A DNA stretch of 64,000 nt from Candidatus Onthoplasma faecipullorum (lineage in GTDB: Bacteria > Bacillota > Clostridia > Christensenellales > UBA1242). Each line of letters starts with the position of its first letter. Within the stretch, counting starts at the first letter, position 1. Of the stretch, positions 902-58,090 are shown piece by piece. The DNA lies in assembly GCA_019120295.1 (NCBI GenBank), contig DWVI01000004.1, positions 102,201-166,200 of the forward strand, read 5' to 3'. The notes below the pieces were generated by a model. The model saw only the letters and a program-made list of their open reading frames with translations. It was not told the DNA's origin and searched no databases. The translations under genes were made by a program, and so were the position numbers.

Positions 902-2222
<1,321 letters not shown>

Positions 2223-4370: not shown

Positions 4371-5312
4371 TTATTTAAATATTTTTGCAACAAATTTGTT
4401 TCCTAAAAGTATAACCATTATAATTGTAATTATTAGAGATAAAGCATAGTTAAAATATATTGGAAAATGAAATATATCATAGTAGGCAAAAAGTTTTATG
4501 AAAAATCCATGTAAGAGATAAATAGAGTATGAATTATTATATTTTGATATAAATGAACATTCTTTGTTTGGAATAAGTACTATAACTGAAAATATTATTG
4601 CTAGGGCAAGTAATAACATTCTAGACCTATCTAGTATAGTGTAATTTGCATTGTTATAAGAGTATGAACCATATAATGCAAGCCTATTAGTGTTATATTT
4701 TATTGCCAATATGGAAGATATAATAAGTAAAATTAAAAACAATAGTTTTATAATAATTTTAGTTTTTCGAGTGGTTGAATTAAATTTATTTTCTAAAACT
4801 CTATACGAATTTTTAAAATAAACGCCTAGGATAAAAAATGGTAAAAACACAAATGTTCTAGAAAGGGAATATCTATATCCAACGTCATCTAAATATCCAA
4901 TAAGTAAACTTATTATTACGGATATGAGTAATATAGTAATTTTAAGATACTTATTTTTTACGTTTATGATTGGTAAAATCAACAAGTATATTGCAGAACT
5001 AAACAAATACCAAAGTAACCAATATGGTTGGTAAAATTGCATTGTTAAGTTATTGTGTAATATGTAATTTTCAAATAATATATACAAAACTTGAAAAATC
5101 ATATAGGGCAAAATGAATTTATTTAACAAATTCTTTATTTTAAATTTAGAGAAAAAACCAAATATAAATATAAAAAATGGCATATGGAAAGAATATATCC
5201 ATCTGTAAATTGCTCCGTTGGTGTCAAAAAGTTCTAACAAATGAGCAAAAACAACAAAAAAGATTAGCAAAAATTTTATATTATCGAATTTATATAACCT
5301 AACATTATCCAC
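4371..5312 (-). CDS. Acyltransferase family 3 membrane protein
   Basis: 313 aa and polytopic. The N-terminal FDNIKFLLIFFVVFAHL and FHMPFFIFIFGFF motifs are typical of acyltransferase_3. Confidence 0.7.
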   Translation of the reverse strand: MDNVRLYKFDNIKFLLIFFVVFAHLLELFDTNGAIYRWIYSFHMPFFIFIFGFFSKFKIKNLLNKFILPYMIFQVLYILFENYILHNNLTMQFYQPYWLLWYLFSSAIYLLILPIINVKNKYLKITILLISVIISLLIGYLDDVGYRYSLSRTFVFLPFFILGVYFKNSYRVLENKFNSTTRKTKIIIKLLFLILLIISSILAIKYNTNRLALYGSYSYNNANYTILDRSRMLLLALAIIFSVIVLIPNKECSFISKYNNSYSIYLLHGFFIKLFAYYDIFHFPIYFNYALSLIITIIMVILLGNKFVAKIFK

Positions 5313-5403
5313 TTTTTAATTATAAAGTATTTTGAGTTGCATTTCAACCATATTAACGCCCCAACAAAACATTTAATAGAGAATAACACCTTTTAAAGAT
5401 ATA

Positions 5404-5429
5404 AACAAAAAACTAGCCTAACGCTAGTT
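5404..5429 (-). terminator. Terminator-like hairpin
   Basis: AACTAGC / GCTAGTT stem followed on the minus strand by TTTTTT. Confidence 0.5.
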
Positions 5430-5434
5430 ATGTG

Positions 5435-5524
5435 TGGTAGTCCCAAGGGGCGAGTAGCGTAAAAAAACATACCCCAATGGGTATGTTTTAGCGTAACGAG
5501 TAACCCCTAGGGGTTCGATTCCCC
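5435..5524 (-). pseudogene. tRNA-Glu-derived fragment: 3' acceptor/T-stem copy with a hairpin insert of about 50 nt in the T-loop position, plus an inverted T-arm
   Basis: 5435-5450 (tggtagtcccaagggg) is identical to the 3' end of tRNA-Glu at 5552-5567. On the minus strand it reads GGGGTT[insert]CCCCTTGGGACTACCA. 5510-5524 is a T-arm (ggggttcgattcccc) in the opposite orientation. Confidence 0.6.
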
Positions 5525-5527
5525 ATT

Positions 5528-5549
5528 AAAAAATAGCACGCGTGTGCTA
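5528..5549 (-). terminator. Terminator immediately after tRNA-Glu
   Basis: TAGCAC / GTGCTA stem followed on the minus strand by TTTTTT, 2 nt after the tRNA CCA end. Confidence 0.6.
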
Positions 5550-5551
5550 TA

Positions 5552-5626
5552 TGGTAGTCCCAAGGGGAATCGAACCCCTGATCCCACCGTGAAAGGGTGG
5601 TGTCTTAACCGCTTGACCATGGGACC
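5552..5626 (-). tRNA. tRNA-Glu (anticodon UUC), CCA encoded
   Basis: Manual cloverleaf: acceptor GGTCCCA/TGGGACT, anticodon arm CCACC-CTTTCAC-GGTGG, T-arm AGGGG-TTCGATT-CCCCT, 75 nt. Confidence 0.9.
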
Positions 5627-6150
5627 GCGTGCCGACATCTCGGCTTTGTAATCGTTTTGCTTGTCGCAAAACTTCATTTGTGCCGAATGTCGGCACGTAT
5701 CCCACTGCGTGATATTCATCACTTGTGGGAGCCCTTGTAATTTTGCTTAAAATACTTTAGCTATTGCTAGGTTGCTTATTTCACGGCGCAACCGTTAGTC
5801 CTTTGCTCGGTTGCTCCTTAATTCCCACTGCGTACCTTACGGCACTCGTGGGAGCCCTGATGAACCCCATTTCGACTATGTCTTATGGGGACCCCTGTTT
5901 TAATCGACGTTGTAATCGTTTTGCTTATCGCAAAACTTCATTTGTGCCGAATGTCGGCACTTTTATGAAGGACAACCGCAGGTTTTCCTTCATGGCTTCT
6001 TTTCCTAATAGGTTTTGATTGAATGATTTTTATATGAGTCGAATAATGGGTACCCTACAAATGTTGGATAACACGCAGTAGGGAAAAGGAGTGGTCGACC
6101 AAAAGGTCTATATTCGAGCTAGCAAATTGACAATGGGTCGTACCACGACG
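5627..6150. ncRNA. ORF-free, G+C-enriched, hairpin-dense spacer between the two tRNAs; candidate structured RNA(s) or tRNA-associated element, strand unresolved
   Basis: Contains two copies of a 51 nt module (5646-5696 and 5910-5960, 1 mismatch). Hairpin families occur at 5701-5734, 5824-5857 and 5863-5895, and inverted at 6048-6083. The track ORFs here overlap tRNAs and hairpins and look spurious. Confidence 0.45.
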
Positions 6151-6234
6151 TGGTGGCGATGGCTCTCTTTGAACCTTGATTATCTGCCAACAAAGTTGTC
6201 AGGGAGATGCGTTGGTTCTCTTTGCCATCGCACC
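6151..6234 (-). pseudogene. tRNA-Met-derived 84 nt rod-like hairpin ending in CCA (degenerate tRNA copy or tRNA-like minihelix)
   Basis: The 5' GGTGCGATGGC and 3' GGTTCAAAGAGAGCCATCGCCACCA ends resemble the ends of tRNA-Met (GGCGATGTGGC ... GGTTCGATTCCACCCATCGCCACCA). The interior folds as one long stem, not a cloverleaf. Confidence 0.55.
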
Positions 6235-6238
6235 TTAA

Positions 6239-6314
6239 TGGTGGCGATGGGTGGAATCGAACCACCGATCTATCGGGTATGAACCGATCGCTCTAACCGC
6301 TGGGCCACATCGCC
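6239..6314 (-). tRNA. tRNA with CAU anticodon (elongator Met, or the Ile2 lysidine type), CCA encoded
   Basis: Manual cloverleaf: acceptor GGCGATG/CATCGCC, anticodon arm ATCGG-TTCATAC-CCGAT, T-arm GGTGG-TTCGATT-CCACC, 76 nt. The G1-C72 pair argues against an initiator tRNA. Confidence 0.85.
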
Positions 6315-6479
6315 TTATGCGAATTTATTATATCCAATAAAATAGTCATTGTCAAGTTATTTTTACAAAATTTTAGTATTTTTAGGTTATTATGTAACGT
6401 TTTTATGAAATTTTATTGTTATAAGCTAAAATAATCGCATAATTTCTTTGTTGTGTTTTGCGGTGGTGTGTTTTTGGTT

Positions 6480-7313
6480 TTACAAATTGTCTGTCATGCC
6501 TGAAAGTTTATCATACTCGTCAGGTGTGCCAATATCGTAGAAGGTTCCGTGATGTGGGAAGGTGAAAGATTTTGTGTTTTGAACAAGGTAATTTATAAAG
6601 TAGCCAAGGCTATCGCGTTCCTTTTTGTTATCTTGCTTTAATGTCAAGTAGTGGTCAAGTAGAGCAAAGTCGTGGCGATTGAATAAATATAGAGCGAGTG
6701 AAACGTTATTTGATTTGCAATTTTCAATTCCTGGTTTTTCGTCCAATGAAAGAATGTGATTTTCTGCACCTAGATTTAAAATGCCAAAGTTTTTAGCAAT
6801 GAACTCACGGTCACTATCTGGGTAAACTTTTGAAACAACCAAGTTAGAAGGTCCGTGCATAATTTCTTTATATTGACCATAGATAAGAAAATCGTCAAGG
6901 TCGAAATCAAAATAATTGTCGCTAGCCATAACTAAGATGTGTTCTTCTGAATTAGGCGAGATGTAACGGTTGGCTAAATTCATGTCCATATTAGCGCCAA
7001 TGGCTTCAGATTTATTTTTAGAACCATCATTTAAAATTGTAAATAATAATTCACCATTTTTTCTTGGATTGTTTACCTTCCATTCTTTGCACGCTTCTTT
7101 TATTTGATTGTAATACTTTGCGTTTGTTACAACGATAATTTCGCTAATATCCTTTACTGTTTGTATTTGATTGATTTTATCTAATATAAAATATAAAATT
7201 GGTTGAGTTTTTCCTTCAACTGTAATTGGAAGCAGAGTTTTTGCAACTTCTCCGCCGTTTGTTCTACTTTCTAATCTTGTGGCATATCCACCTGCTAAAA
7301 TAACTATTTTCAT
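6480..7313 (-). CDS. Sugar-phosphate nucleotidyltransferase family protein
   Basis: The N-terminal MKIVILAGGYATRL matches the GxGtRL NTP-transferase signature; 277 aa. Confidence 0.7.
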   Translation of the reverse strand: MKIVILAGGYATRLESRTNGGEVAKTLLPITVEGKTQPILYFILDKINQIQTVKDISEIIVVTNAKYYNQIKEACKEWKVNNPRKNGELLFTILNDGSKNKSEAIGANMDMNLANRYISPNSEEHILVMASDNYFDFDLDDFLIYGQYKEIMHGPSNLVVSKVYPDSDREFIAKNFGILNLGAENHILSLDEKPGIENCKSNNVSLALYLFNRHDFALLDHYLTLKQDNKKERDSLGYFINYLVQNTKSFTFPHHGTFYDIGTPDEYDKLSGMTDNL

Positions 7314-15076: not shown

Positions 15077-18000
15077 GAAAAAGAATTAGTTGTATCTTCA
15101 CATTTGTTTTAGTGATATGTTCACTAATCTTTGTTGCGCCACTTGGTGGAACATATGCTTACGAACCAACCGACATTGTGGATAGTAAATATTTAATAAC
15201 CACAGATATTGGAGATAATCAAGTCTATTTATCAAACGAAGTTGCAGGAAAAACTTCTGGTTATGGTAGATTTGTTATTGATGCGCAAAACGTAACCTTA
15301 TCAACCACCGCCGAGCAAGGTTATAGCGTTGCAGGCTGGAATATTACATATGTGGACGAAGATAGGTCTGAATTTGTTAACGCAAATGATGCAGTGCTTG
15401 GCGAAAATAATGTATACACTCAAACAGTTGATATAGATAGCAATTATAACGTCAATATCACAATCAATTATTTCGACGAATATAGTAACGGAGTTTTTAA
15501 CTATTCAACATTCACAATATCACGTGTGTTCGGCGATTTACAGGTTGAGCCTGTGTTTAAATATAATTATTACAAAGTTCAAGTGGACGACGCGCTAACT
15601 ATTGGAAACATCACCGAATTAGATAATATAAATTTATCTGCTAGCGAAACATTGTATTATGAAAATTCAAGCGTGGCAGACGGCGTCACATATTACACTA
15701 ATTCATATATTTATTCAGACGAAGGCTTATTTTACTTTGGCGATTTGTATAGTGAAAACCAAATCATTACAAGTGGAGACATAAGTGAAAGTTTAACTAG
15801 ATATTACACATTGCATTACAGTTCTTCACTTGTAGGTTCAAGTGAAAAAGTAGATTACTCACTTGGCGCATATAGAATTGGCGAAAATGTAAATTATAAT
15901 CTAAATATTGCATTATCTAGCGCGATTGAAGATAGTGTAAACATTGAAATAACTGCAACAAATTTAATAACGAGTGAAGGTACAACAGCGCTTCCTAACA
16001 CAGGGGAGTCAAACTATTATTCAGTTGAAAGTGATAGTTTTTTAAGAAGTTCTTCATATTATGTAAATTTTGTGGTTACACATTCGTCCAATCTAATAAA
16101 TACAGTTGATATAGTTTACAACAATTTGTATTTAGTTACATTAGTTGCAAGGATAGACGGCGAAGTTGTAACAGATGTGCAAGAAACAGACGTTTTAAAT
16201 GTAGTTTCTGTGTTATATCAATATTCACAGATAAATAATAAACAATATTTTGCAAAATCACAGGAAAATAATGACGGTTTTGCGTTCCGTGTTTCAACAA
16301 TAGATGTAATTTCTAAAATGATTGACGGCAGAGTTTACAACTATTATGAGTTTGATAGTTTAGACGGAGATAATCAACTTTATAAAACATATCCGACGAT
16401 TAACAACAATTTTGAAATTACAATAGATTATGTTTCAATAGATTACACAGTAGATTTTGCTTTTGCGGTTAACCACAATGGCACACTAAATGTATTAGAA
16501 GGAAATTATAATCTTGAAAGTCCGATTACGGCAAACCGTGGAGACGAATTGCAAATCAATAAAACCGACATTTCAAACAATATTGGTTACGATTTTTATG
16601 GCTTCACCTTAACTACCACGTCCTTCCAAGAGAACGATTCAATTACCATAGAAATTGATGAAGAAAGACCAGAAAATGTAACAGTTATAATGGTTTATGA
16701 GTTGATAGATTATACGATAAATATTCGTAATTTTGACCAAATAACTTTAATAAATGGTGAGCAAACGATTTATCCTATAACAAGGATAGATTACACTCAC
16801 ACAAGGGAATCGTCAAGCAATACATATTCAATATATGACCAAGATTTAAGGTCGGCGGAAAATAATAGCATTAGCCTTTCAGTAACGGCAAATTTAAATG
16901 ATAGTATATCGCTAAGTACTTATGTTAATAATGGTTTCAGCATTCTAGGTTATAGATTGAGTGAGTTAGATAATCTTAGTTCAGGTAGTACGTTCAGTTT
17001 AAACATTTCACAAGATATAATCAGTCAGTTTGCGGACGGAACGAATATAAATATTTACATATATGAAGATTTCGTTAGATATACAAGCACCTTCTATATA
17101 GACCCAAGCCTAGACACAAACACAAATCAAATGGTTGTCATGGCAGATATTGACGTTACCGCGCCAGAATATGCCGTGGTTAATAAGAGTTTTGTTGTGG
17201 AAACAGGAGATGTTGATTATTCAGTAAGACACACAATCGTTGTAAGCAACTTAAAATTATACGATCAAGTTAGTATGAATTCGGTTGGTAGAGAAATATC
17301 AAACGACCAAGGCGAAAGTTACCGCTACATATTTGTTAGATTTACTGAAAATGGTCTTGTAAATTTAGATTACACACTAAATGAAGACACAAACACCTAT
17401 ACACACACTTCTCAAATAATTCGAGATAACAGCATTAGCGTTGTTTACTCAATGGAAAGTTCTAAGTTGTATGTTTCAACAAACAGAGCGGACGCTTATG
17501 ATTTATCATTAGTTACATTTATGCGTAACGGCGAAGTGGTTGAGAAAAATGAAGACGGCACTATCGACGCAGAAGAAGGGGAACTCACTGTTGTGTTAAA
17601 CCCTATGAGCGAAGATAGAACGTTTGCATTTGGTTATAGTTTTGTTGGTTACACTTTCATAAAGGGCGGAGTTAGTGAAACTGTTCAAAGTTTAAACACA
17701 ACTTTCGTGCTTCAAACGATTGGTAGTAGTGTTCAATATCTAGAATTGAATTTTATTGAACTAGAATATCGTTTGCAAGTTAGCCAATATGGCGGTGATT
17801 ATGACGGTGAATTGGTGGAATTTGAAGAAAATCAAACTTACACATCTCTTGATATTACCGATTTAACATTAGAGTTTGAAAAACCAACGGGTTACTATGT
17901 AAGTGCAACATATTTTGTTAGCAATGTGGAAAATCTTTATCCTGAAATTGTTGAGTCTAATAGCAACGTAACATATACATTCAGTTATACATTTAACCTA

Positions 18001-22916: not shown

Positions 22917-23007
22917 AATCGTATTATAACAAAAAAACTTTATTTAATCAACTTTTTTATAAACACAATAAAACTTTAAAAGTTATATAAATTTTGAATT
23001 TAATTTA

Positions 23008-23037
23008 AAAATAAAAAACACACCATGTGGTGTGTTT
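23008..23037 (-). terminator. Terminator after rpsR
   Basis: AACACACCA / TGGTGTGTT stem followed on the minus strand by a T-run. Confidence 0.65.
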
Positions 23038-23051
23038 GTAAAATTTTTATT

Positions 23052-23348
23052 TTAGTCACCGCTAAATGGAAGCAATGCCATATTTCTTGCGCGCTTAATT
23101 GCAACGGTCAATTCACGTTGGTGACGAGCGCATGTTCCAGTTTGACGTGAAGGGATAATTTTACCTTTTTCTGTTACAAACTTTTTAAGCCTGTTAACAT
23201 CTTTGTAATCAATAGGTTTTTTATCTTCACAGAAAGCGCAAACTTTTTTCTTAGACTTTGCATGTTTGAAAAACTTTTTCTTTTCTTGAACAGGTTTTGC
23301 ACTTTCTTCAACAACTGGTTGATTAACAACTTCTTTTTCGTTTTCCAT
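23052..23348 (-). CDS. rpsR: 30S ribosomal protein S18 (with an N-terminal extension of about 30 aa)
   Basis: C-terminal [50 protein letters not shown]. Confidence 0.92.
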
Positions 23349-23419
23349 GTTTTTCTCCTTTATAATATTTTCACATTAAATTGTAAATTTTATCAAATAA
23401 TTGTAAATTATTTAAATGA

Positions 23420-23827
23420 TTAGAATGGTAAACTATCATCGTCAACAGGTTGCAAGTCGCTAACAGGAGCGCCTGAACTTGTTGTAACACCTGATTCAGT
23501 TGAACCATCGTTTCTAGTTGATAAAAATTCAACTTCGTCTGCAACAATGTCTACTGCAAAACCTTTTGTGCCGTCACTCTTTTCATAATTTCTTGTTTGA
23601 ATAGAGCCAACAACAGCAATTTTGCTACCTTTCTTCAAATATTTAGCGCAATTTTCAGCGGTTGCACGCCAAGCGGAAACATTGAAGAAATCTGTATCTC
23701 TTCCGCCGTCCGCATTAGCAAAACGACGAGACACAGCAATAGACAACCTGCACACAGACACACCACTAGTGGTTGTTGATAATTCAGGGTCCCTAGTTAG
23801 ATTACCAATTAAATACACTTTGTTCAT
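23420..23827 (-). CDS. ssb: Single-stranded DNA-binding protein
   Basis: OB-fold N-terminus MNKVYLIGNLTRDPEL and acidic tip DDDSLPF. It sits in the conserved rpsF-ssb-rpsR arrangement. Confidence 0.92.
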   Translation of the reverse strand: MNKVYLIGNLTRDPELSTTTSGVSVCRLSIAVSRRFANADGGRDTDFFNVSAWRATAENCAKYLKKGSKIAVVGSIQTRNYEKSDGTKGFAVDIVADEVEFLSTRNDGSTESGVTTSSGAPVSDLQPVDDDSLPF

Positions 23828-23926
23828 ATTAATTCTCCTAACACTTTACTTAAAAATTGGAGAGATTTATAATTTTTCAACCAATTTTAAGTTAAATAGA
23901 AATCATAAATGTTTCTTATTTTAATA

Positions 23927-24208
23927 CTATTTTGCAACAATCATGTAACGCATTATGTTGTTAGTGATTGATAGCAAAGCACCAAGCCTGTTTGGAACAT
24001 TGGCGTCTGTTGAAAAGTTTGTTAACACGTAGAAACCTTCGCGCTTTTTATCAATTGGGTATGCAAGTTTTTTGTTTCCAATGCGCTCAACAGATTCAAT
24101 TTTTCCGCCGTCTTTTTCAATCATTCCGTTTACAAGAGCAATAAGAGCTTCTTTTTCTTCATCAGTAGATTGACTAGGAATGATATACATCAACTCGTAA
24201 TTTTTCAC
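23927..24208 (-). CDS. rpsF: 30S ribosomal protein S6
   Basis: MKNYELMYII... is typical of S6. GTG start with an AAGGAGG RBS. Confidence 0.9.
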   Translation of the reverse strand: MKNYELMYIIPSQSTDEEKEALIALVNGMIEKDGGKIESVERIGNKKLAYPIDKKREGFYVLTNFSTDANVPNRLGALLSITNNIMRYMIVAK

Positions 24209-24357
24209 ATTAACCTCCTTGTGGACTATTGACCTAAAAATTAGGTAAGGAACGCTTTAAGCGTCAAGTGGCATTTCAAATCGACTTAAAATTAGCCACT
24301 TGTGTTAAAATTAACTTTTAACGCTTGCATTATAACATATAAAAATAAAAAAAGCAA
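24209..24357 (-). promoter_or_regulatory. rpsF promoter plus a structured 5' leader of about 110 nt (candidate S6:S18 autoregulatory leader)
   Basis: On the minus strand: TTGCTT (24357-24352), 17 nt spacer, TATAAT (24334-24329). The leader contains the AAGTGGC...GCCACTT and GACGCTT/AAGCGTT hairpins. Confidence 0.4.
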
Positions 24358-24491
24358 TAATTATTTTAAAAATTTATTTAGAGAATGAATGCACCAAACC
24401 TACATTTTGTTTTTAAATCAGCAATTTAGACAAAATTGTCACTAAAAATATTGCCTAATAATACAAAATTTTTCCAATTTCTTAAAATTAT

Positions 24492-24520
24492 TTTACAAAA
24501 CACATTGTTTATATTATAAT
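24492..24520 (+). promoter_or_regulatory. SigA-type promoter for glnS
   Basis: TTTACA, 17 nt spacer, TATAAT, located 40 nt upstream of the ATG. Confidence 0.6.
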
Positions 24521-24560
24521 AAAAACGTAAAAAGTTAAAATGGTTTTAGGAGTATTTTAA

Positions 24561-34061: not shown

Positions 34062-34397
34062 ATGAAACATTTTATGAAATTACAAAATGAACCTTTTACA
34101 AATATAAAAAAGGGTTTAAAAACTATTGAAATGAGATTGTTTGATGAAAAACGCCAACAAATTAAAGTGGGAGACACGATTGAATTTACAAACATGTTTA
34201 GTTCAGAAAAATTAAATGTAAAAGTGATAGGGTTACACAAATTTAAAAATTTTGAAGAACTTTATTCCCATTTTAATAAAAAACAATTAGGTTATAAGCA
34301 AACGGAAATAGCAAGTCCAAACGATATGAACCAATATTATACTAATGAAGACATTGAAAAATACGGTGTCGTCGGAATTGAAATTAAAACTTTTTAA
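34062..34397 (+). CDS. ASCH domain protein
   Basis: 111 aa. MKLQNEPFTNIKKGLKTIEMRLFDEKRQQIKVGD matches the ASCH N-terminal pattern. Confidence 0.6.
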   Translation: MKHFMKLQNEPFTNIKKGLKTIEMRLFDEKRQQIKVGDTIEFTNMFSSEKLNVKVIGLHKFKNFEELYSHFNKKQLGYKQTEIASPNDMNQYYTNEDIEKYGVVGIEIKTF

Positions 34398-34433
34398 TCT
34401 AAAATTACTAAAAATATTATTGTACAAAATATT

Positions 34434-34439
34434 TATAAT
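34434..34439 (+). promoter_or_regulatory. TATAAT box 15 nt upstream of the tRNA-Arg 5' fragment
   Basis: Exact TATAAT, but no convincing -35 element. Confidence 0.3.
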
Positions 34440-34454
34440 TTTGTACAAATATAT

Positions 34455-34726
34455 GCTTCCGTGGTGTAATGGATAGCACACGCAATACATCTGTGCGTTT
34501 TAATCGTTTACTCGAAACTCGTAAACTTCATTTATGCTTGATGTATTGCGTAACCCCACTTCGACATTGTCTTGTGGGGACCACAGAATAACCCCACTGC
34601 AACATTCGTTTTGTGGGGACCCCAGAATAACCCCACTGCAACATTCGTTTTGTGGGGACCCCGTGAACCATTGCGCTAAAAGATTTGCACGATTTCGAAT
34701 TATTCTAACATTTTAATATCAAATAT
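34455..34726 (+). ncRNA. Candidate structured RNA/element: a copy of tRNA-Arg positions 1-26 fused to about 245 nt of hairpin modules, directly upstream of the intact tRNA-Arg
   Basis: 34455-34480 is identical to 34727-34752. 34481-34550 is homologous to 5629-5696 with compensated stems. Three hairpins of the CCCCAC..GTGGGGACC(CC) family follow, and GAACCATT (34665-34672) matches the tRNA anticodon-stem 3' side. Confidence 0.5.
34585..34662 (+). repeat. Perfect tandem duplication of a 39 nt hairpin unit
   Basis: agaataaccccactgcaacattcgttttgtggggacccc occurs twice, back to back. Confidence 0.9.
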
Positions 34727-34801
34727 GCTTCCGTGGTGTAATGGATAGCACAATGGTCTTCGGAACCATTAGTTCGGGTTCAAATCCTGACGGAAGCACC
34801 A
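34727..34801 (+). tRNA. tRNA-Arg (anticodon UCG), CCA encoded
   Basis: Manual cloverleaf: acceptor GCTTCCG/CGGAAGC, anticodon arm ATGGT-CTTCGGA-ACCAT, T-arm TCGGG-TTCAAAT-CCTGA, 75 nt. Confidence 0.88.
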
Positions 34802-34884
34802 ATGTTACTTAGATCTCTTTTCATTATTAAAGTTCTTTATTTTTAAACCATTTTGTGATATAATTATAAAATAAAAGGAGTGTT

Positions 34885-35472
34885 ATGACGGAAATTTGTG
34901 TGCAAGCATACACCGCTTTGGAAGAATTGCAAAGAAAACTAGAAAATGCGGGGTTTGAATTTGTAGAAAATTACAACAATTCGGACACTTATTTTTCAAT
35001 TCTCAATGAAAACGATGTTGAAAATGTTGATTATAAAACGCTTTTAGATAGTTCGTTAATTGTGCGTCATATTGTGGGAGATAGTTGCGACATCAAAAAT
35101 TTAGTGTATAAAAAGAAAACACTGGACGAAAACGGTAATGTTATCAAAGAAATTAAAACAAAATTAAAAATTGACGATATTGATAAGGCTAAACAAATGT
35201 TTTCAAGTTTAGGACTAACTTGCTGGTGTGATTATATAAATCACAATTACGAATACAAGAAGGGCGAGATATCTATAATCGTGCAATATGTGGATAGTTT
35301 AGGCTTGTTTATAGAAATTGAAGAGTTTAATTCAATCAAAGATAAATCAGATAAAGAAAAGTTTGCTATATTAAAGGATATCGTTAACTCTTTAAATCTT
35401 CCACTTGGTTCAGATTTTAGTTGTAAAAAACCTTATATGTATTTAAACAAAACAAAAGAGCATCATGTTTAA
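34885..35472 (+). CDS. CYTH-like (class IV adenylate cyclase / triphosphatase fold) protein
   Basis: 195 aa. LIVRHIVGD...LVYKKKT...IIVQYVDSLGLFIEIE matches the CYTH beta-strand pattern, but the N-terminal ExExK motif is not canonical. Confidence 0.5.
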   Translation: MTEICVQAYTALEELQRKLENAGFEFVENYNNSDTYFSILNENDVENVDYKTLLDSSLIVRHIVGDSCDIKNLVYKKKTLDENGNVIKEIKTKLKIDDIDKAKQMFSSLGLTCWCDYINHNYEYKKGEISIIVQYVDSLGLFIEIEEFNSIKDKSDKEKFAILKDIVNSLNLPLGSDFSCKKPYMYLNKTKEHHV

Positions 35473-40578: not shown

Positions 40579-40692
40579 ATTAAATAAAAATAAAAATTTT
40601 TAAAAAAATAACAAAAAAATTAAAAAAATATAAAAAATTATAAAAAATAGCGAATTTTTTAAAAAAAATTAAATTTTTTTTGTTTTTTATGA

Positions 40693-57187: not shown

Positions 57188-57259
57188 TCGTAATTTTGTA
57201 ATGTTATCATAGGTTTGTCAGTAAGATGATAAACCTTATTTTTATAAGGAAATAACCTG

Positions 57260-57292
57260 TAGGTTCGTCTTATTGACGAGCCTATTTTTTTT
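57260..57292 (+). terminator. Strong terminator preceding the phage-like module
   Basis: TAGGTTCGTC-ttatt-GACGAGCCTA followed by TTTTTTTT. Confidence 0.7.
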
Positions 57293-57310
57293 GTTAAAAG
57301 GAGGGAAGTT

Positions 57311-57493
57311 ATGGTTGAAGAAGCAGCTACAACAAAGAGAAAATCTATTTGTATTGGCGTCTATGTTTCTCCTGATATGCACAACAAGCTTAAGAAATAC
57401 TCAAAAGAAAGCGAAACAGTGCACGGCGTTAAATACACAATCAGCGACGTAGTTAGGCTGGCTTTGAAAAATTTTTTTGATAAGAACAAATAG
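57311..57493 (+). CDS. Small ribbon-helix-helix-like protein
   Basis: 60 aa. KSICIGVYVSPDMHNKL...VVRLALKNFF fits a beta-strand plus two helices. Confidence 0.45.
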   Translation: MVEEAATTKRKSICIGVYVSPDMHNKLKKYSKESETVHGVKYTISDVVRLALKNFFDKNK

Positions 57494-57503
57494 GAGGTAT
57501 GTT

Positions 57504-57803
57504 ATGAGAAAACAACTTAAAGAAGTCGTTAAATGCGTTACAGAAGAATTGAGAACAAATTACTCAGCACGAACAAATGATAATGAACTCATTCTTGGAG
57601 TTATGAGAAGACTTGGAGTTGACACTAACATACCATTTTCAGAGCTTATACATAGCGGCAACTTGCCAACAAGCTTTGAATCAATTACAAGAGCACGAAG
57701 AAAGGTGCAAGCACAGAATCCTATATTAAAAGATAAACCTACAGCAGATTTAAGGCAAGAGCAGGAGGAAGTGTATCGAAAGTTTGCTAAAGAAAATTTA
57801 TAA
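57504..57803 (+). CDS. Hypothetical phage protein
   Basis: GGAGG RBS before the ATG at 57504. The track start at 57477 would overlap the previous gene. Confidence 0.5.
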   Translation: MRKQLKEVVKCVTEELRTNYSARTNDNELILGVMRRLGVDTNIPFSELIHSGNLPTSFESITRARRKVQAQNPILKDKPTADLRQEQEEVYRKFAKENL

Positions 57804-57814
57804 GGGAGGATACA

Positions 57815-58066
57815 ATGATAATTTACGGTCTTTACTACTATACCCCTAATGCACAAGGGTTTATTGCAAAAAGAACGGCAATTGAAAGGGAAGAAGAATT
57901 TACCAAAATTAAAGACTTACTGAAAAATTTAGCTGAATCAGAATATGGAGCTGAATATTCAGAAGAACAACTAAGATTTGACTTATATATTCCTTGCGAA
58001 GATTGTTGCTATGATGGGCAACATTACTGGGTTGAACTTATTGATATTAACACGAATGAAATCTAA
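57815..58066 (+). CDS. Hypothetical phage protein
   Basis: 83 aa, GGGAGG RBS. Confidence 0.5.
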   Translation: MIIYGLYYYTPNAQGFIAKRTAIEREEEFTKIKDLLKNLAESEYGAEYSEEQLRFDLYIPCEDCCYDGQHYWVELIDINTNEI

Positions 58067-58090
58067 CAAGTTTTAATTAGGAGGTAAAAT

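Follow-up and report, generated by a model that had tools for sequence, protein, structure and literature searches.

A hairpin-repeat family beside tRNA genes and the enlarged tRNA-Met/tRNA-Glu spacer of a Christensenellales genome

In the genome of Candidatus Onthoplasma faecipullorum, the genes for tRNA-Met and tRNA-Glu are separated by a spacer of 612 nucleotides (nt) that is densely folded and rich in G+C, which raises the question of what kind of element occupies it. The original prediction saw in this island the signature of a structured RNA and pointed to the large RNAs ROOL and GOLLD, which are reported next to tRNA genes. We have analyzed the locus within a stretch of 64 kilobases (kb) of contig DWVI01000004.1, referred to here as the window, and have compared it with loci from other genomes and assemblies that are designated by L-numbers (L001, L004 etc.); plus orientation always denotes the plus strand of the window. 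The spacer contains arrays of short hairpin modules that recur at other tRNA genes, and in the explanation that we favor, with moderate confidence, the locus is one tRNA operon with a spacer and 3' flank enlarged by mosaic arrays of such hairpin repeats and by partial tRNA duplicates.

The Met-Glu spacer and its hairpin modules

Both tRNA genes had originally been read on the minus strand, and both are called there by ARAGORN and by Rfam, tRNA-Met(CAU) with 67 bits and tRNA-Glu(UUC) with 64 bits. The G+C content of positions 5435-6314 is 47.5%, as compared to 32.9% across the window, and the hand counts given in the original prediction, 3/60 for 40621-40680, 24/60 for 5701-5760 and 33/60 for 5821-5880, proved exact on recount. 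Among the 29 internal stretches outside open reading frames (ORFs) of at least 110 amino acids (aa), the gap at 5313-6479 ranks first both in length (1167 nt) and in G+C content (41.9%); a 260-nt stretch cut by the start of the window reaches 40.0%, and most of the remaining gaps range from 6 to 28%. Note that two other G+C-richer gaps, 22917-24560 and 57188-58090, contain small genes for ribosomal proteins S6 and S18 and for SSB, along with short phage-like ORFs, and that the two most G+C-rich gene-free gaps of the window are the Met-Glu locus and a second array at 34451-34665. On the minus strand, the minimum free energy (MFE) of the spacer is -224.8 kcal/mol versus -150.2 +/- 4.1 kcal/mol for shuffled sequences (z = -18.2), so that the description as a G+C-enriched, hairpin-dense island is borne out. 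The ORFs 5764-6018(+), 6091-6282(+) and 5507-5722(-) are all without Pfam support (best E = 0.07, for 5764-6018). Contrary to the original description, they do not all overlap tRNA genes, the 84-aa ORF 5764-6018(+) being free of such overlap.

The spacer is built from repeated units. A 57-nt unit termed A occurs at 5640-5696 and again as A2, a 36-nt unit termed B is found twice (B1 and B2) and once more as an inverted B-like copy, and C is a shorter relative of B with homologous copies in L004, L008, L012 and L017 (Table 1). In A1, which abuts the 5' end of tRNA-Glu, an outer stem of 17 base pairs (bp) with one bulge surrounds conserved U/A-rich internal loops and an apical hairpin of 7 bp, while in A2 the 5' outer strand is missing, but one outer hairpin and the A core, a GTTTTGC-N5-GCAAAAC hairpin whose flanks are conserved, are retained. 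The D-like segment combines a degenerate 3' end of A (GCAAAATTACAA) with a hairpin GGAGCAACCG...CGGTTGCGCC and with the motif TCGGTTGCTCC, which also precedes B in L009 and L011. In the MFE structure the inverted B pairs with B1 and thereby closes a domain of about 320 nt by a long-range helix of 29 nt; this helix is two copies of B in opposite orientation, nothing more.

As evidenced by the comparison of homologs that the original prediction had called for, the individual hairpins do covary. B/C is a two-stem hairpin with a conserved internal-loop sequence, and both of its helices show covariation. In 25 distinct copies, 94% of cells are paired, and 34 cells have changed on both sides, as opposed to 10.7 +/- 2.3 in shuffles, a value that 0 of 500 shuffles reached; sliding the partner by 1-3 columns lowered the pairing to 28-54%. 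In complete A units the outer stem measures 16-17 bp and has a single bulge, always at the same position; inside it lie T-rich internal loops, which are conserved, and the apical hairpin of 7 bp. This architecture of 11 bp, bulge, 4-5 bp, conserved loops and apical hairpin stays constant while the sequence of the stem changes fully, and the basal 11 bp pair perfectly in four versions of unrelated sequence. The apical stem covaries as well, GTTTTGC/GCAAAAC being replaced by GTTTAC/GTAAAC in the array at tRNA-Arg. We considered the GTTTTGC-N5-GCAAAAC element as a DNA operator and rejected this, since its variants keep the pairing while sequence and spacing change (GTTTAC-N9-GTAAAC), as is characteristic of a hairpin and not of a sequence-specific duplex site.

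None of the modules could be assigned to a described RNA family, in agreement with the original prediction. An Rfam scan of the whole window at gathering thresholds returned only four tRNAs, and a permissive scan of 5300-6450 (E <= 10, 4227 families) returned no large RNA family and nothing useful for ROOL, GOLLD, raiA, HEARO or OLE; matches of the tmRNA type reached only 9-18 bits and fell on T-arm-like pieces. Permissive scans of L004 7000-9700 and of 34300-34900 gave tRNAs and weak matches that are due to chance or derived from tRNA, and rtT RNA had no match among the 4227 families at E <= 10.

The signals around the two genes would make the locus a two-tRNA operon, with the order promoter, tRNA-Met, spacer, tRNA-Glu and terminator. 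A consensus promoter precedes tRNA-Met, with an equivalent, TTGACA-17-TATACT, in front of the tRNA-Met of L004, and in the consensus scan the minus strand between the two tRNA genes contained neither promoter nor terminator. An internal promoter for tRNA-Glu within the spacer was therefore rejected, none being predicted on this strand. G+C-rich hairpins followed by a T run are predicted twice after tRNA-Glu, and both of these terminators had been noted originally. With a promoter before tRNA-Met and no minus-strand terminator ahead of tRNA-Glu, the island should be co-transcribed with the tRNAs, and as the first such terminator comes only after tRNA-Glu, this gene should depend on read-through of the whole spacer.

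Recurrence at other tRNA genes and turnover among strains

The pieces of sequence that are conserved at other loci are modules of 30-110 nt, and A, B/C and D occur in differing order, copy number and orientation in the window, L004, L005, L008, L009, L012 and L017. B2 is 89-95% identical to copies in L004, L008, L009, L011, L012 and L013, and the L004 modules match the window at about 74-93% identity over 28-92 nt. Conservation outside the strain, the absence of which was part of the refuting condition of the original prediction, holds for the modules, which recur in other genomes, but 5627-6238 is not conserved as a unit. Wherever the context is visible, the arrays adjoin a tRNA gene or tRNA fragment or lie within about 100 nt of one. 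In L004-L007 tandem units of about 371 nt, composed of the modules, directly follow tRNA-Gly(CCC), in L008 and L012 they flank tRNA-Leu on both sides, in L009 they come after tRNA-Arg, and in L017 they stand before tRNA-Gly as well as after tRNA-Gly and tRNA-Arg.

A scan for the strict B pattern in the genomes of 185,579 species yielded five real loci, all in metagenome-assembled genomes of uncultured Christensenellales or Clostridia, with one locus per genome, so that the modules have not proliferated. A match in Actinomyces coding sequence, L010, is due to chance. Two of the nine matches from a metagenome scan are real, L017 and L022, the latter from the same species as the window; the other seven were dismissed as G+C-rich chance matches. 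When all 64 kb were searched with the covariance model without filtering, seven B/C hairpins (E < 0.01) emerged, all of them within the two tRNA-linked regions, and the two weaker matches (E of 1.6 and 5) are opposite-strand readings inside the same arrays. The model gave 29 matches in nine module-bearing sources and none in seven related loci without modules. The modules are thus a low-copy repeat family linked to tRNA genes and found so far only in a few metagenome-assembled genomes from a subgroup of uncultured gut Christensenellales.

The second array of the window, on the plus strand, starts with a 5' fragment of tRNA-Arg (positions 1-26 plus 4 nt upstream), continues with an A variant whose outer stem is CGCAATACATC/GATGTATTGCG, and ends in three B/C hairpins (34554-34584, 34592-34623 and 34631-34662). 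The intact tRNA-Arg gene, 34727-34801, begins 62 nt after the array, and a direct repeat of 30 nt (34451-34480 = 34723-34752) brackets an insert of 242 nt. L037-L039, three further assemblies from this species, have the same sequence here as the window and hence provide no empty site.

For the Met-Glu spacer, orthologous regions were fetched via the neighboring NTP-transferase gene. The ancestral layout in the relatives is NTP-transferase, tRNA-Gly(CCC), tRNA-Met and tRNA-Glu, and the spacer between the last two measures 116 nt in L027, 180 in L023, 211 in L030, 240 in L034 and 277 in L004. All five spacers are rich in hairpins, free of modules and unrelated in sequence to that of the window. 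Within the species, the spacer is present in full in L022 (99.6% identical), but L001 (98.5% identical) is without B1 and A1 and about 125 nt shorter. At the junction between L001 and the window, 8 nt are replaced by 127 nt, and a target-site duplication is not seen. The leader directly before tRNA-Glu in L001, GCGAGAGTTGCGACGT, is a close match to that of the distant L027 (GCGAGATTTGCGACGT), which identifies the A1-B1 unit as a recent gain. For 5961-6238 and 5736-5806, over half of the spacer, BLAST found no homolog outside the species. The module-free spacers of the relatives and the absence of A1-B1 from L001 rule out a single conserved large RNA.

Several further observations concern the same regions. 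The module-free spacers L004 8880-9156, L030 11250-11460 and L034 7996-8235 are homologous to one another and have in common GATTACAA..TCCTTTTATCCTA, a GACC..GGTC hairpin and GTACCGAC..GTCGGTA; as these spacers are also hairpin-dense, structured tRNA spacers may be general in the group. Window positions 6315-6480 are without the tRNA-Gly(CCC) found between NTP-transferase and tRNA-Met in L004, L027 and L030-L035. L004 and L005 are strains of 96-97% identity with an identical NTP-transferase, and their arrays after tRNA-Gly(CCC) differ by about 600 nt, with approximately three units at L004 7160-8015 versus one at L005 7160-7383. Module A of L005 contains, between its core and its 3' outer strand, a nested segment of about 120 nt that is rich in hairpins. 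Long and mutually similar pyrimidine-rich tracts (e.g. TTTTTCTTTTCATTTTTCACTTTTATTTTTTC) follow the last B hairpin in L009 (6680-6810) and L013 (7850-7925).

Orientation and tRNA-derived sequence at the arrays

The arrays have a polarity. Terminator-like sites are found in the plus orientation only, four versus none in the spacer of the window and five versus none in the L004 array, and T-richness lies in the plus orientation in 11 of 12 arrays, the remaining one being neutral. Downstream of a tRNA gene the modules stand in plus orientation, with the first hairpin of A and its T run 1-3 nt after the CCA end (L004, L012 and L017); in L004 this first hairpin directly after the tRNA is GGCGAAATATCGCC, followed by ATTTTTTT, and by sequence the same applies to L012 and L017. 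Upstream of a tRNA gene or within a tRNA operon they stand in minus orientation, as seen at tRNA-Glu of the window, at tRNA-Leu of L008 and L012 and at tRNA-Gly of L017. The simplest reading of this rule is selection, in that the terminator-bearing orientation would be intolerable between a promoter and its tRNA. In a set of 12 copies, B pairs slightly better in minus orientation (97.7% versus 93.9%), as seven G-U pairs become A-C on the other strand, and the apical loops of A in minus orientation mostly read G...A (GACAA, GATAA, GATTA and GAATA). Both the pairing bias and the loop pattern may be inherited features and are weak as evidence for a strand.

Besides the modules, the locus contains sequence derived from its own tRNAs, and the tRNA-Met-like rod and the tRNA-Glu 3' fragment with an insert that the original prediction had described were both recovered by the repeat scans. 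The 3' strand of the rod copies the T-arm and the 3' end of the acceptor of tRNA-Met (...GGTTCAAAGAGAGCCATCGCCACCA) and ends in the tRNA-Met 3' sequence GCCATCGCCACCA. The rod is present in L001 and L022 and has no match in the other loci; it is a partial, species-specific duplicate of tRNA-Met. The tRNA-Glu fragment, CCCCTTGGGACTACCA at 5435-5450, has its insert upstream. Read along the minus strand, this element after tRNA-Glu comprises, in order, a T-arm in which the loop is inverted (GGGGAATCGAACCCCT), a T-stem (AGGGG...CCCCT) with a terminator-like hairpin in its loop, and the acceptor 3' strand with CCA. It repeats the last 16 nt of tRNA-Glu along with the T-stem, and the repeat brackets 101 nt.

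The element is conserved in L004 (9290-9383) and L023 (19109-19231), where changes in the inner hairpin are compensatory. Its flanking terminators differ among the window, L004 and L023, and L027 and L030-32 do not have the element. It may be an att remnant or a product of tandem duplication, or else a functional tRNA mimic. In L004, tandem copies of 69 nt are found, and the repeat continues for 60 nt beyond the tRNA, reaching into the terminator, and is present three to four times, a pattern more suggestive of tandem duplication than of an att core. L027 has a gene for a phage-type integrase (16762-17922) immediately behind tRNA-Glu, and small phage-like genes follow it, so that integrative elements do use tRNA-Glu as a site in this family.

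Note that the truncated tRNA-Arg of the window (34455-34480) and the truncated tRNA-Leu of L012 (6722-6750) both break after tRNA position 26, the end of the D-arm, and that in both cases modules in plus orientation lie between the fragment and the intact gene.

The features of the locus are collected in Table 1. It is surrounded by genes for FtsK, PNPase and a D-Ala-D-Ala carboxypeptidase, neighbors that place it on a bacterial chromosome. Elsewhere in the window, at 902-2209(-), an ORF of 435 aa encodes a collagen-like protein with long runs of G-x-T and G-P-T triplets and a non-repetitive C-terminal domain; its 52-62% G+C in a genome of 33% G+C is due to Gly, Pro and Thr codons.

Table 1. 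Features of the tRNA-Met/tRNA-Glu locus, in order of the minus strand, and of the second array (positions in the window; R1, covariance model)
Feature	Position	Strand	Evidence
Predicted sigma-70-type promoter, TTGACA-17 nt-TATAAT	6327..6355	(-)	consensus match 12/12; ~12 nt upstream of tRNA-Met
tRNA-Met (CAU), CCA encoded	6239..6314	(-)	ARAGORN and Rfam tRNA; 100% identical to L004 tRNA-Met
Rod, 84-nt hairpin	6151..6234	(-)	repeats D5, D7; fold
Species-specific hairpin GUCGUGGUACGACC...GGUCGACCAC	6091..6146	(-)	fold; matches confined to same species
Inverted B-type hairpin CCCTAC...GTAGGG	6048..6083	(-)	R1 45.9 bits; inverted repeat I1; fold
Species-specific hairpin CAUGAAGGAAAACC UGC GGUUGUCCUUCAU	5965..5993	(-)	inverted repeat I10; fold
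Module A2	5904..5960	(-)	repeat D1, 95% identical to A1; nhmmer; fold
Module C, short B-type hairpin CCCCAT...ATGGGG	5865..5895	(-)	R1 23.3 bits
Module B2, two-stem hairpin (outer CCCAC/GTGGG, inner GTACC/GGCAC)	5823..5858	(-)	R1 57.7 bits
D-like segment	5736..5822	(-)	repeats, fold; BLAST match of 5807-5862 to L009
Module B1	5700..5735	(-)	R1 58.6 bits
Module A1, complete copy	5628..5697	(-)	inverted repeat I14; fold -41 kcal/mol; outer-stem comparison
tRNA-Glu (UUC), CCA encoded	5552..5626	(-)	ARAGORN and Rfam
Predicted intrinsic terminator of the operon, ATAGCACACGCGTGCTAT then TTTTTT	5533..5550	(-)	terminator scan
Element after tRNA-Glu	5435..5524	(-)	repeats I3, I11, D3
Second predicted intrinsic terminator, AACTAGCGTTAGGCTAGTT then TTTTGTTT	5411..5429	(-)	terminator scan
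Second array of the module family	34451..34665	(+)	sequence; R1 matches

Origin and role of the modules

The explanation of the locus as one tRNA operon enlarged by repeats starts from what is directly observed, namely its anatomy, the repeat family, the tRNA linkage, the covariation, the strain polymorphism and the polarity, and would add to this co-transcription, processing, a role of the modules as terminators or structured spacers, and their spread by recombination. Two kinds of sequence would have been added, the arrays of A, B/C and D-like modules and the partial duplicates of neighboring tRNAs. The arrays would grow, shrink and move between tRNA loci by recombination, i.e. by unequal crossing-over and replacement of flanks, and not by cut-and-paste transposition. 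In plus orientation, their hairpins and T runs would act like terminators, while the minus orientation, devoid of T runs, would be read through. As the array in the Met-Glu spacer stands in the orientation without T runs, it should be read through and transcribed as a long structured spacer RNA, which would then be removed as RNase P cleaves at tRNA-Glu and the 3' end of tRNA-Met is trimmed.

Several points weigh against this explanation. The array at tRNA-Arg lies upstream of the intact gene in the terminator-type orientation, and conforms to the orientation rule only if the truncated copy is taken as the reference. The statements that the modules occur only beside tRNA genes and in low copy number are based on 64 kb and on short pieces of other genomes and are not genome-wide counts, and the context of the arrays in L011 and L013 is cut off by the end of the sequence. 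Moreover, modules are 85-95% identical between genomes whose neighboring NTP-transferase proteins are only about 57% identical, more than is expected of a passive spacer or of junk repeats, and this points to a specific function or to recent horizontal spread. Finally, co-transcription, processing and termination are all predictions from consensus scans.

The alternative that survives best, although we consider it unlikely, is that the modules represent mobile DNA of a non-autonomous kind, with tRNA genes as its target. They could be miniature integrative elements like CIMEs, att-site remnants of integrase-driven elements, or hairpin elements similar to miniature inverted-repeat transposable elements (MITEs). 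The locus would then be a graveyard of successive insertions, and RNA structure would be incidental or would serve recognition at the DNA level. The presence or absence of A1-B1 between strains, the variation of array copy number within a species and the nested segment in module A of L005 would fit this idea, as would the partial tRNA duplicates at the borders of arrays (the 30-nt tRNA-Arg repeat, the 26-nt 5' fragment of tRNA-Leu in L012, the 16-nt tRNA-Glu repeat and the rod), the integrase directly after tRNA-Glu in L027 and the high identity of modules between genera, which is compatible with horizontal spread. Nevertheless, the copies have no terminal inverted repeats in common, as the outer stems of A differ completely among them, and the filled and empty sites of the A1-B1 indel show no target duplication, so that they do not conform to MITEs. 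Complete A units begin 1-5 nt outside the tRNA and not at a crossover within it, and the strict B pattern is limited to a single locus per genome. Direct repeats of 16 nt at tRNA-Glu and of 30 nt at tRNA-Arg are present, but neither an integrase such as that of L027 nor any other recombinase gene lies beside any module array examined. Insertion of the IS200/IS605 type, 3' of a short fixed target, was rejected because the bases before complete A units differ (GACC, GGCA, CCGC, TCCA and ACCA).

The original prediction had conceded that a known insertion sequence, MITE or prophage att remnant might account for all modules. BLASTN of the locus against phage and plasmid collections matched the two tRNAs only, and the B pattern had no match in 2.9 million viral contigs. 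The A-core pattern had one match in these contigs, which lies inside a coding region with neither flanking similarity nor a tRNA and was treated as chance, so that the two pattern scans contain no real copy.

Doubtful as well is the proposal that the modules are functional RNA elements kept by selection beside tRNAs, serving as protein-binding or processing hairpins or as small RNAs that RNase P, RNase Z or RNase III would free from tRNA precursors. The array in the Met-Glu spacer would then supply several copies per transcript. The covariation of both B/C helices around a conserved internal-loop sequence, the A architecture that is retained while its stem changes completely, and a conservation across genera that approaches the level of tRNA all speak in favor of this. 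The tRNA-sense orientation is also the one that favors B pairing, with its seven G-U pairs, and the G...A apical loops, and in a spacer between two tRNAs the processing of the tRNAs would by itself excise the RNA. However, modules occur in both orientations relative to tRNA transcription, such that no single strand fits all loci, and the copies downstream of tRNAs sit behind a terminator-like hairpin. Furthermore, copy number varies from 0 or 1 to 3 between strains, which would be uncommon for an RNA that is required; a single inherited change may account for the G-U bias, and Rfam holds no similar family.

More speculative still, the modules may be an undescribed class of structured elements dedicated to the boundaries of tRNA genes, recognized by a protein and able to move between tRNA loci and genera. 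Recognition could take place at the level of RNA or of single-stranded or cruciform DNA, for example by an enzyme of the RNase III type or by a recombinase. If this were true, the modules would be a bacterial counterpart of elements that target tRNA genes, with a built-in directional terminator or insulator, and the near-tRNA conservation across genera, the A end facing the tRNA and the break at tRNA position 26/27 would be signatures of the mechanism.

Very improbable, and largely refuted, is the idea that one large structured non-coding RNA comparable to ROOL, GOLLD or OLE makes up the entire spacer of about 610 nt. The size, G+C enrichment, tRNA neighbors, folding z-score and closed 320-nt domain of the spacer would fit, but no large Rfam family matched at E <= 10, five related lineages with the same tRNA pair have unrelated spacers of 116-277 nt, L001 lacks one arm of the long-range helix, which is in any case formed by two oppositely oriented copies of B, and over half of the sequence is without a homolog outside the species. 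The original inference of structured RNA from a G+C-rich island stands with regard to folding and covariation, whereas a single ROOL- or GOLLD-like RNA is contradicted by the module-free relatives and the absence of A1-B1 from L001.

Among known systems, one of the closest is BOX of Streptococcus pneumoniae, modular repeats of the form boxA-boxB(n)-boxC with more than 100 dispersed chromosomal copies (Croucher et al. 2011, PMC3049150). Like BOX (PMC3049150), the family consists of short intergenic modules in variable number (here A-B-B-B) with extensive secondary structure, it is confined to a narrow group of related species with slow, recombination-like turnover, and it is probably co-transcribed with neighboring genes, to judge from the consensus scans. 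Unlike the dispersed BOX, it is low in copy number, located only beside tRNA genes in the DNA examined, and highly identical between genera; in sequence no resemblance to BOX was noticed, though no direct comparison was run. The repetitive extragenic palindromic (REP) units and bacterial interspersed mosaic elements (BIMEs) of enterobacteria are extragenic palindromes in alternating orientation, mixed with other conserved motifs, that form hairpins in transcripts and affect termination or RNA stability in dependence of their orientation; a genome contains hundreds of REP units, which have a link to a REP-associated transposase. The present modules resemble them as extragenic palindromic hairpin units in a mosaic with other motifs and in both orientations, but differ from REP in that they are low-copy and tRNA-linked, that no such transposase is seen, and that stem sequences differ between copies. 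Short structured modules of variable order and number in intergenic DNA are thus common to all of these families, but the high copy number and dispersal between ordinary genes are not, as seven of the seven clear B/C copies in the 64 kb are located at two tRNA loci.

The repeats of the Escherichia coli tyrT operon encode rtT (rttR) RNA (Bosl and Kersten 1991, as cited in PMC3318445). They lie downstream of the tRNA gene, contain a copy of the tRNA 3' end in each unit, are transcribed with the tRNA and are confined to one operon. The rod after tRNA-Met, the element after tRNA-Glu and the 69-nt tandem copies of L004 are similar, and the rod, the tRNA-Glu element and the tRNA-Arg fragment likewise copy part of an adjacent tRNA. 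Modules A to D, in contrast, carry no tRNA sequence and are common to different tRNA loci and genera, and there is no sequence similarity to tyrT/rtT. With ROOL, GOLLD and OLE the spacer has in common a length of about 600 nt, the position of a G+C-rich island in an A+T-rich Bacillota genome and the tRNA neighbors, but it has no covariance-model match, is not conserved as a unit, and is built of modules that are also found separately. CIMEs are integrase-less elements bounded by att sites. Similar to these, direct repeats of tRNA parts flank a short insert at tRNA-Glu and tRNA-Arg, and an integrase is found at tRNA-Glu in L027; unlike them, the inserts are only 100-240 nt long and gene-free, most arrays are without a flanking tRNA repeat, and the repeat in L004 extends 60 nt beyond the tRNA. 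In our best reading the modules are similar in kind to BOX or BIME and are set apart by their tRNA specificity, low copy number, polarity and conservation across genera.

Hunting structured RNAs by way of G+C-rich, ORF-free islands in A+T-rich genomes thus calls for caution, as this approach can pick up repeat arrays; such islands fold extremely well because they are built of hairpin repeats and not because they are one RNA. Comparison with relatives and with strains separates the two cases, as it did at the Met-Glu locus. tRNA genes are very highly transcribed, and the gut Christensenellales are barely studied experimentally. If the polarity and the tRNA linkage of the modules reflect a function, be it termination, insulation, processing or targeted mobility, they would represent a new type of accessory element of bacterial tRNA operons.

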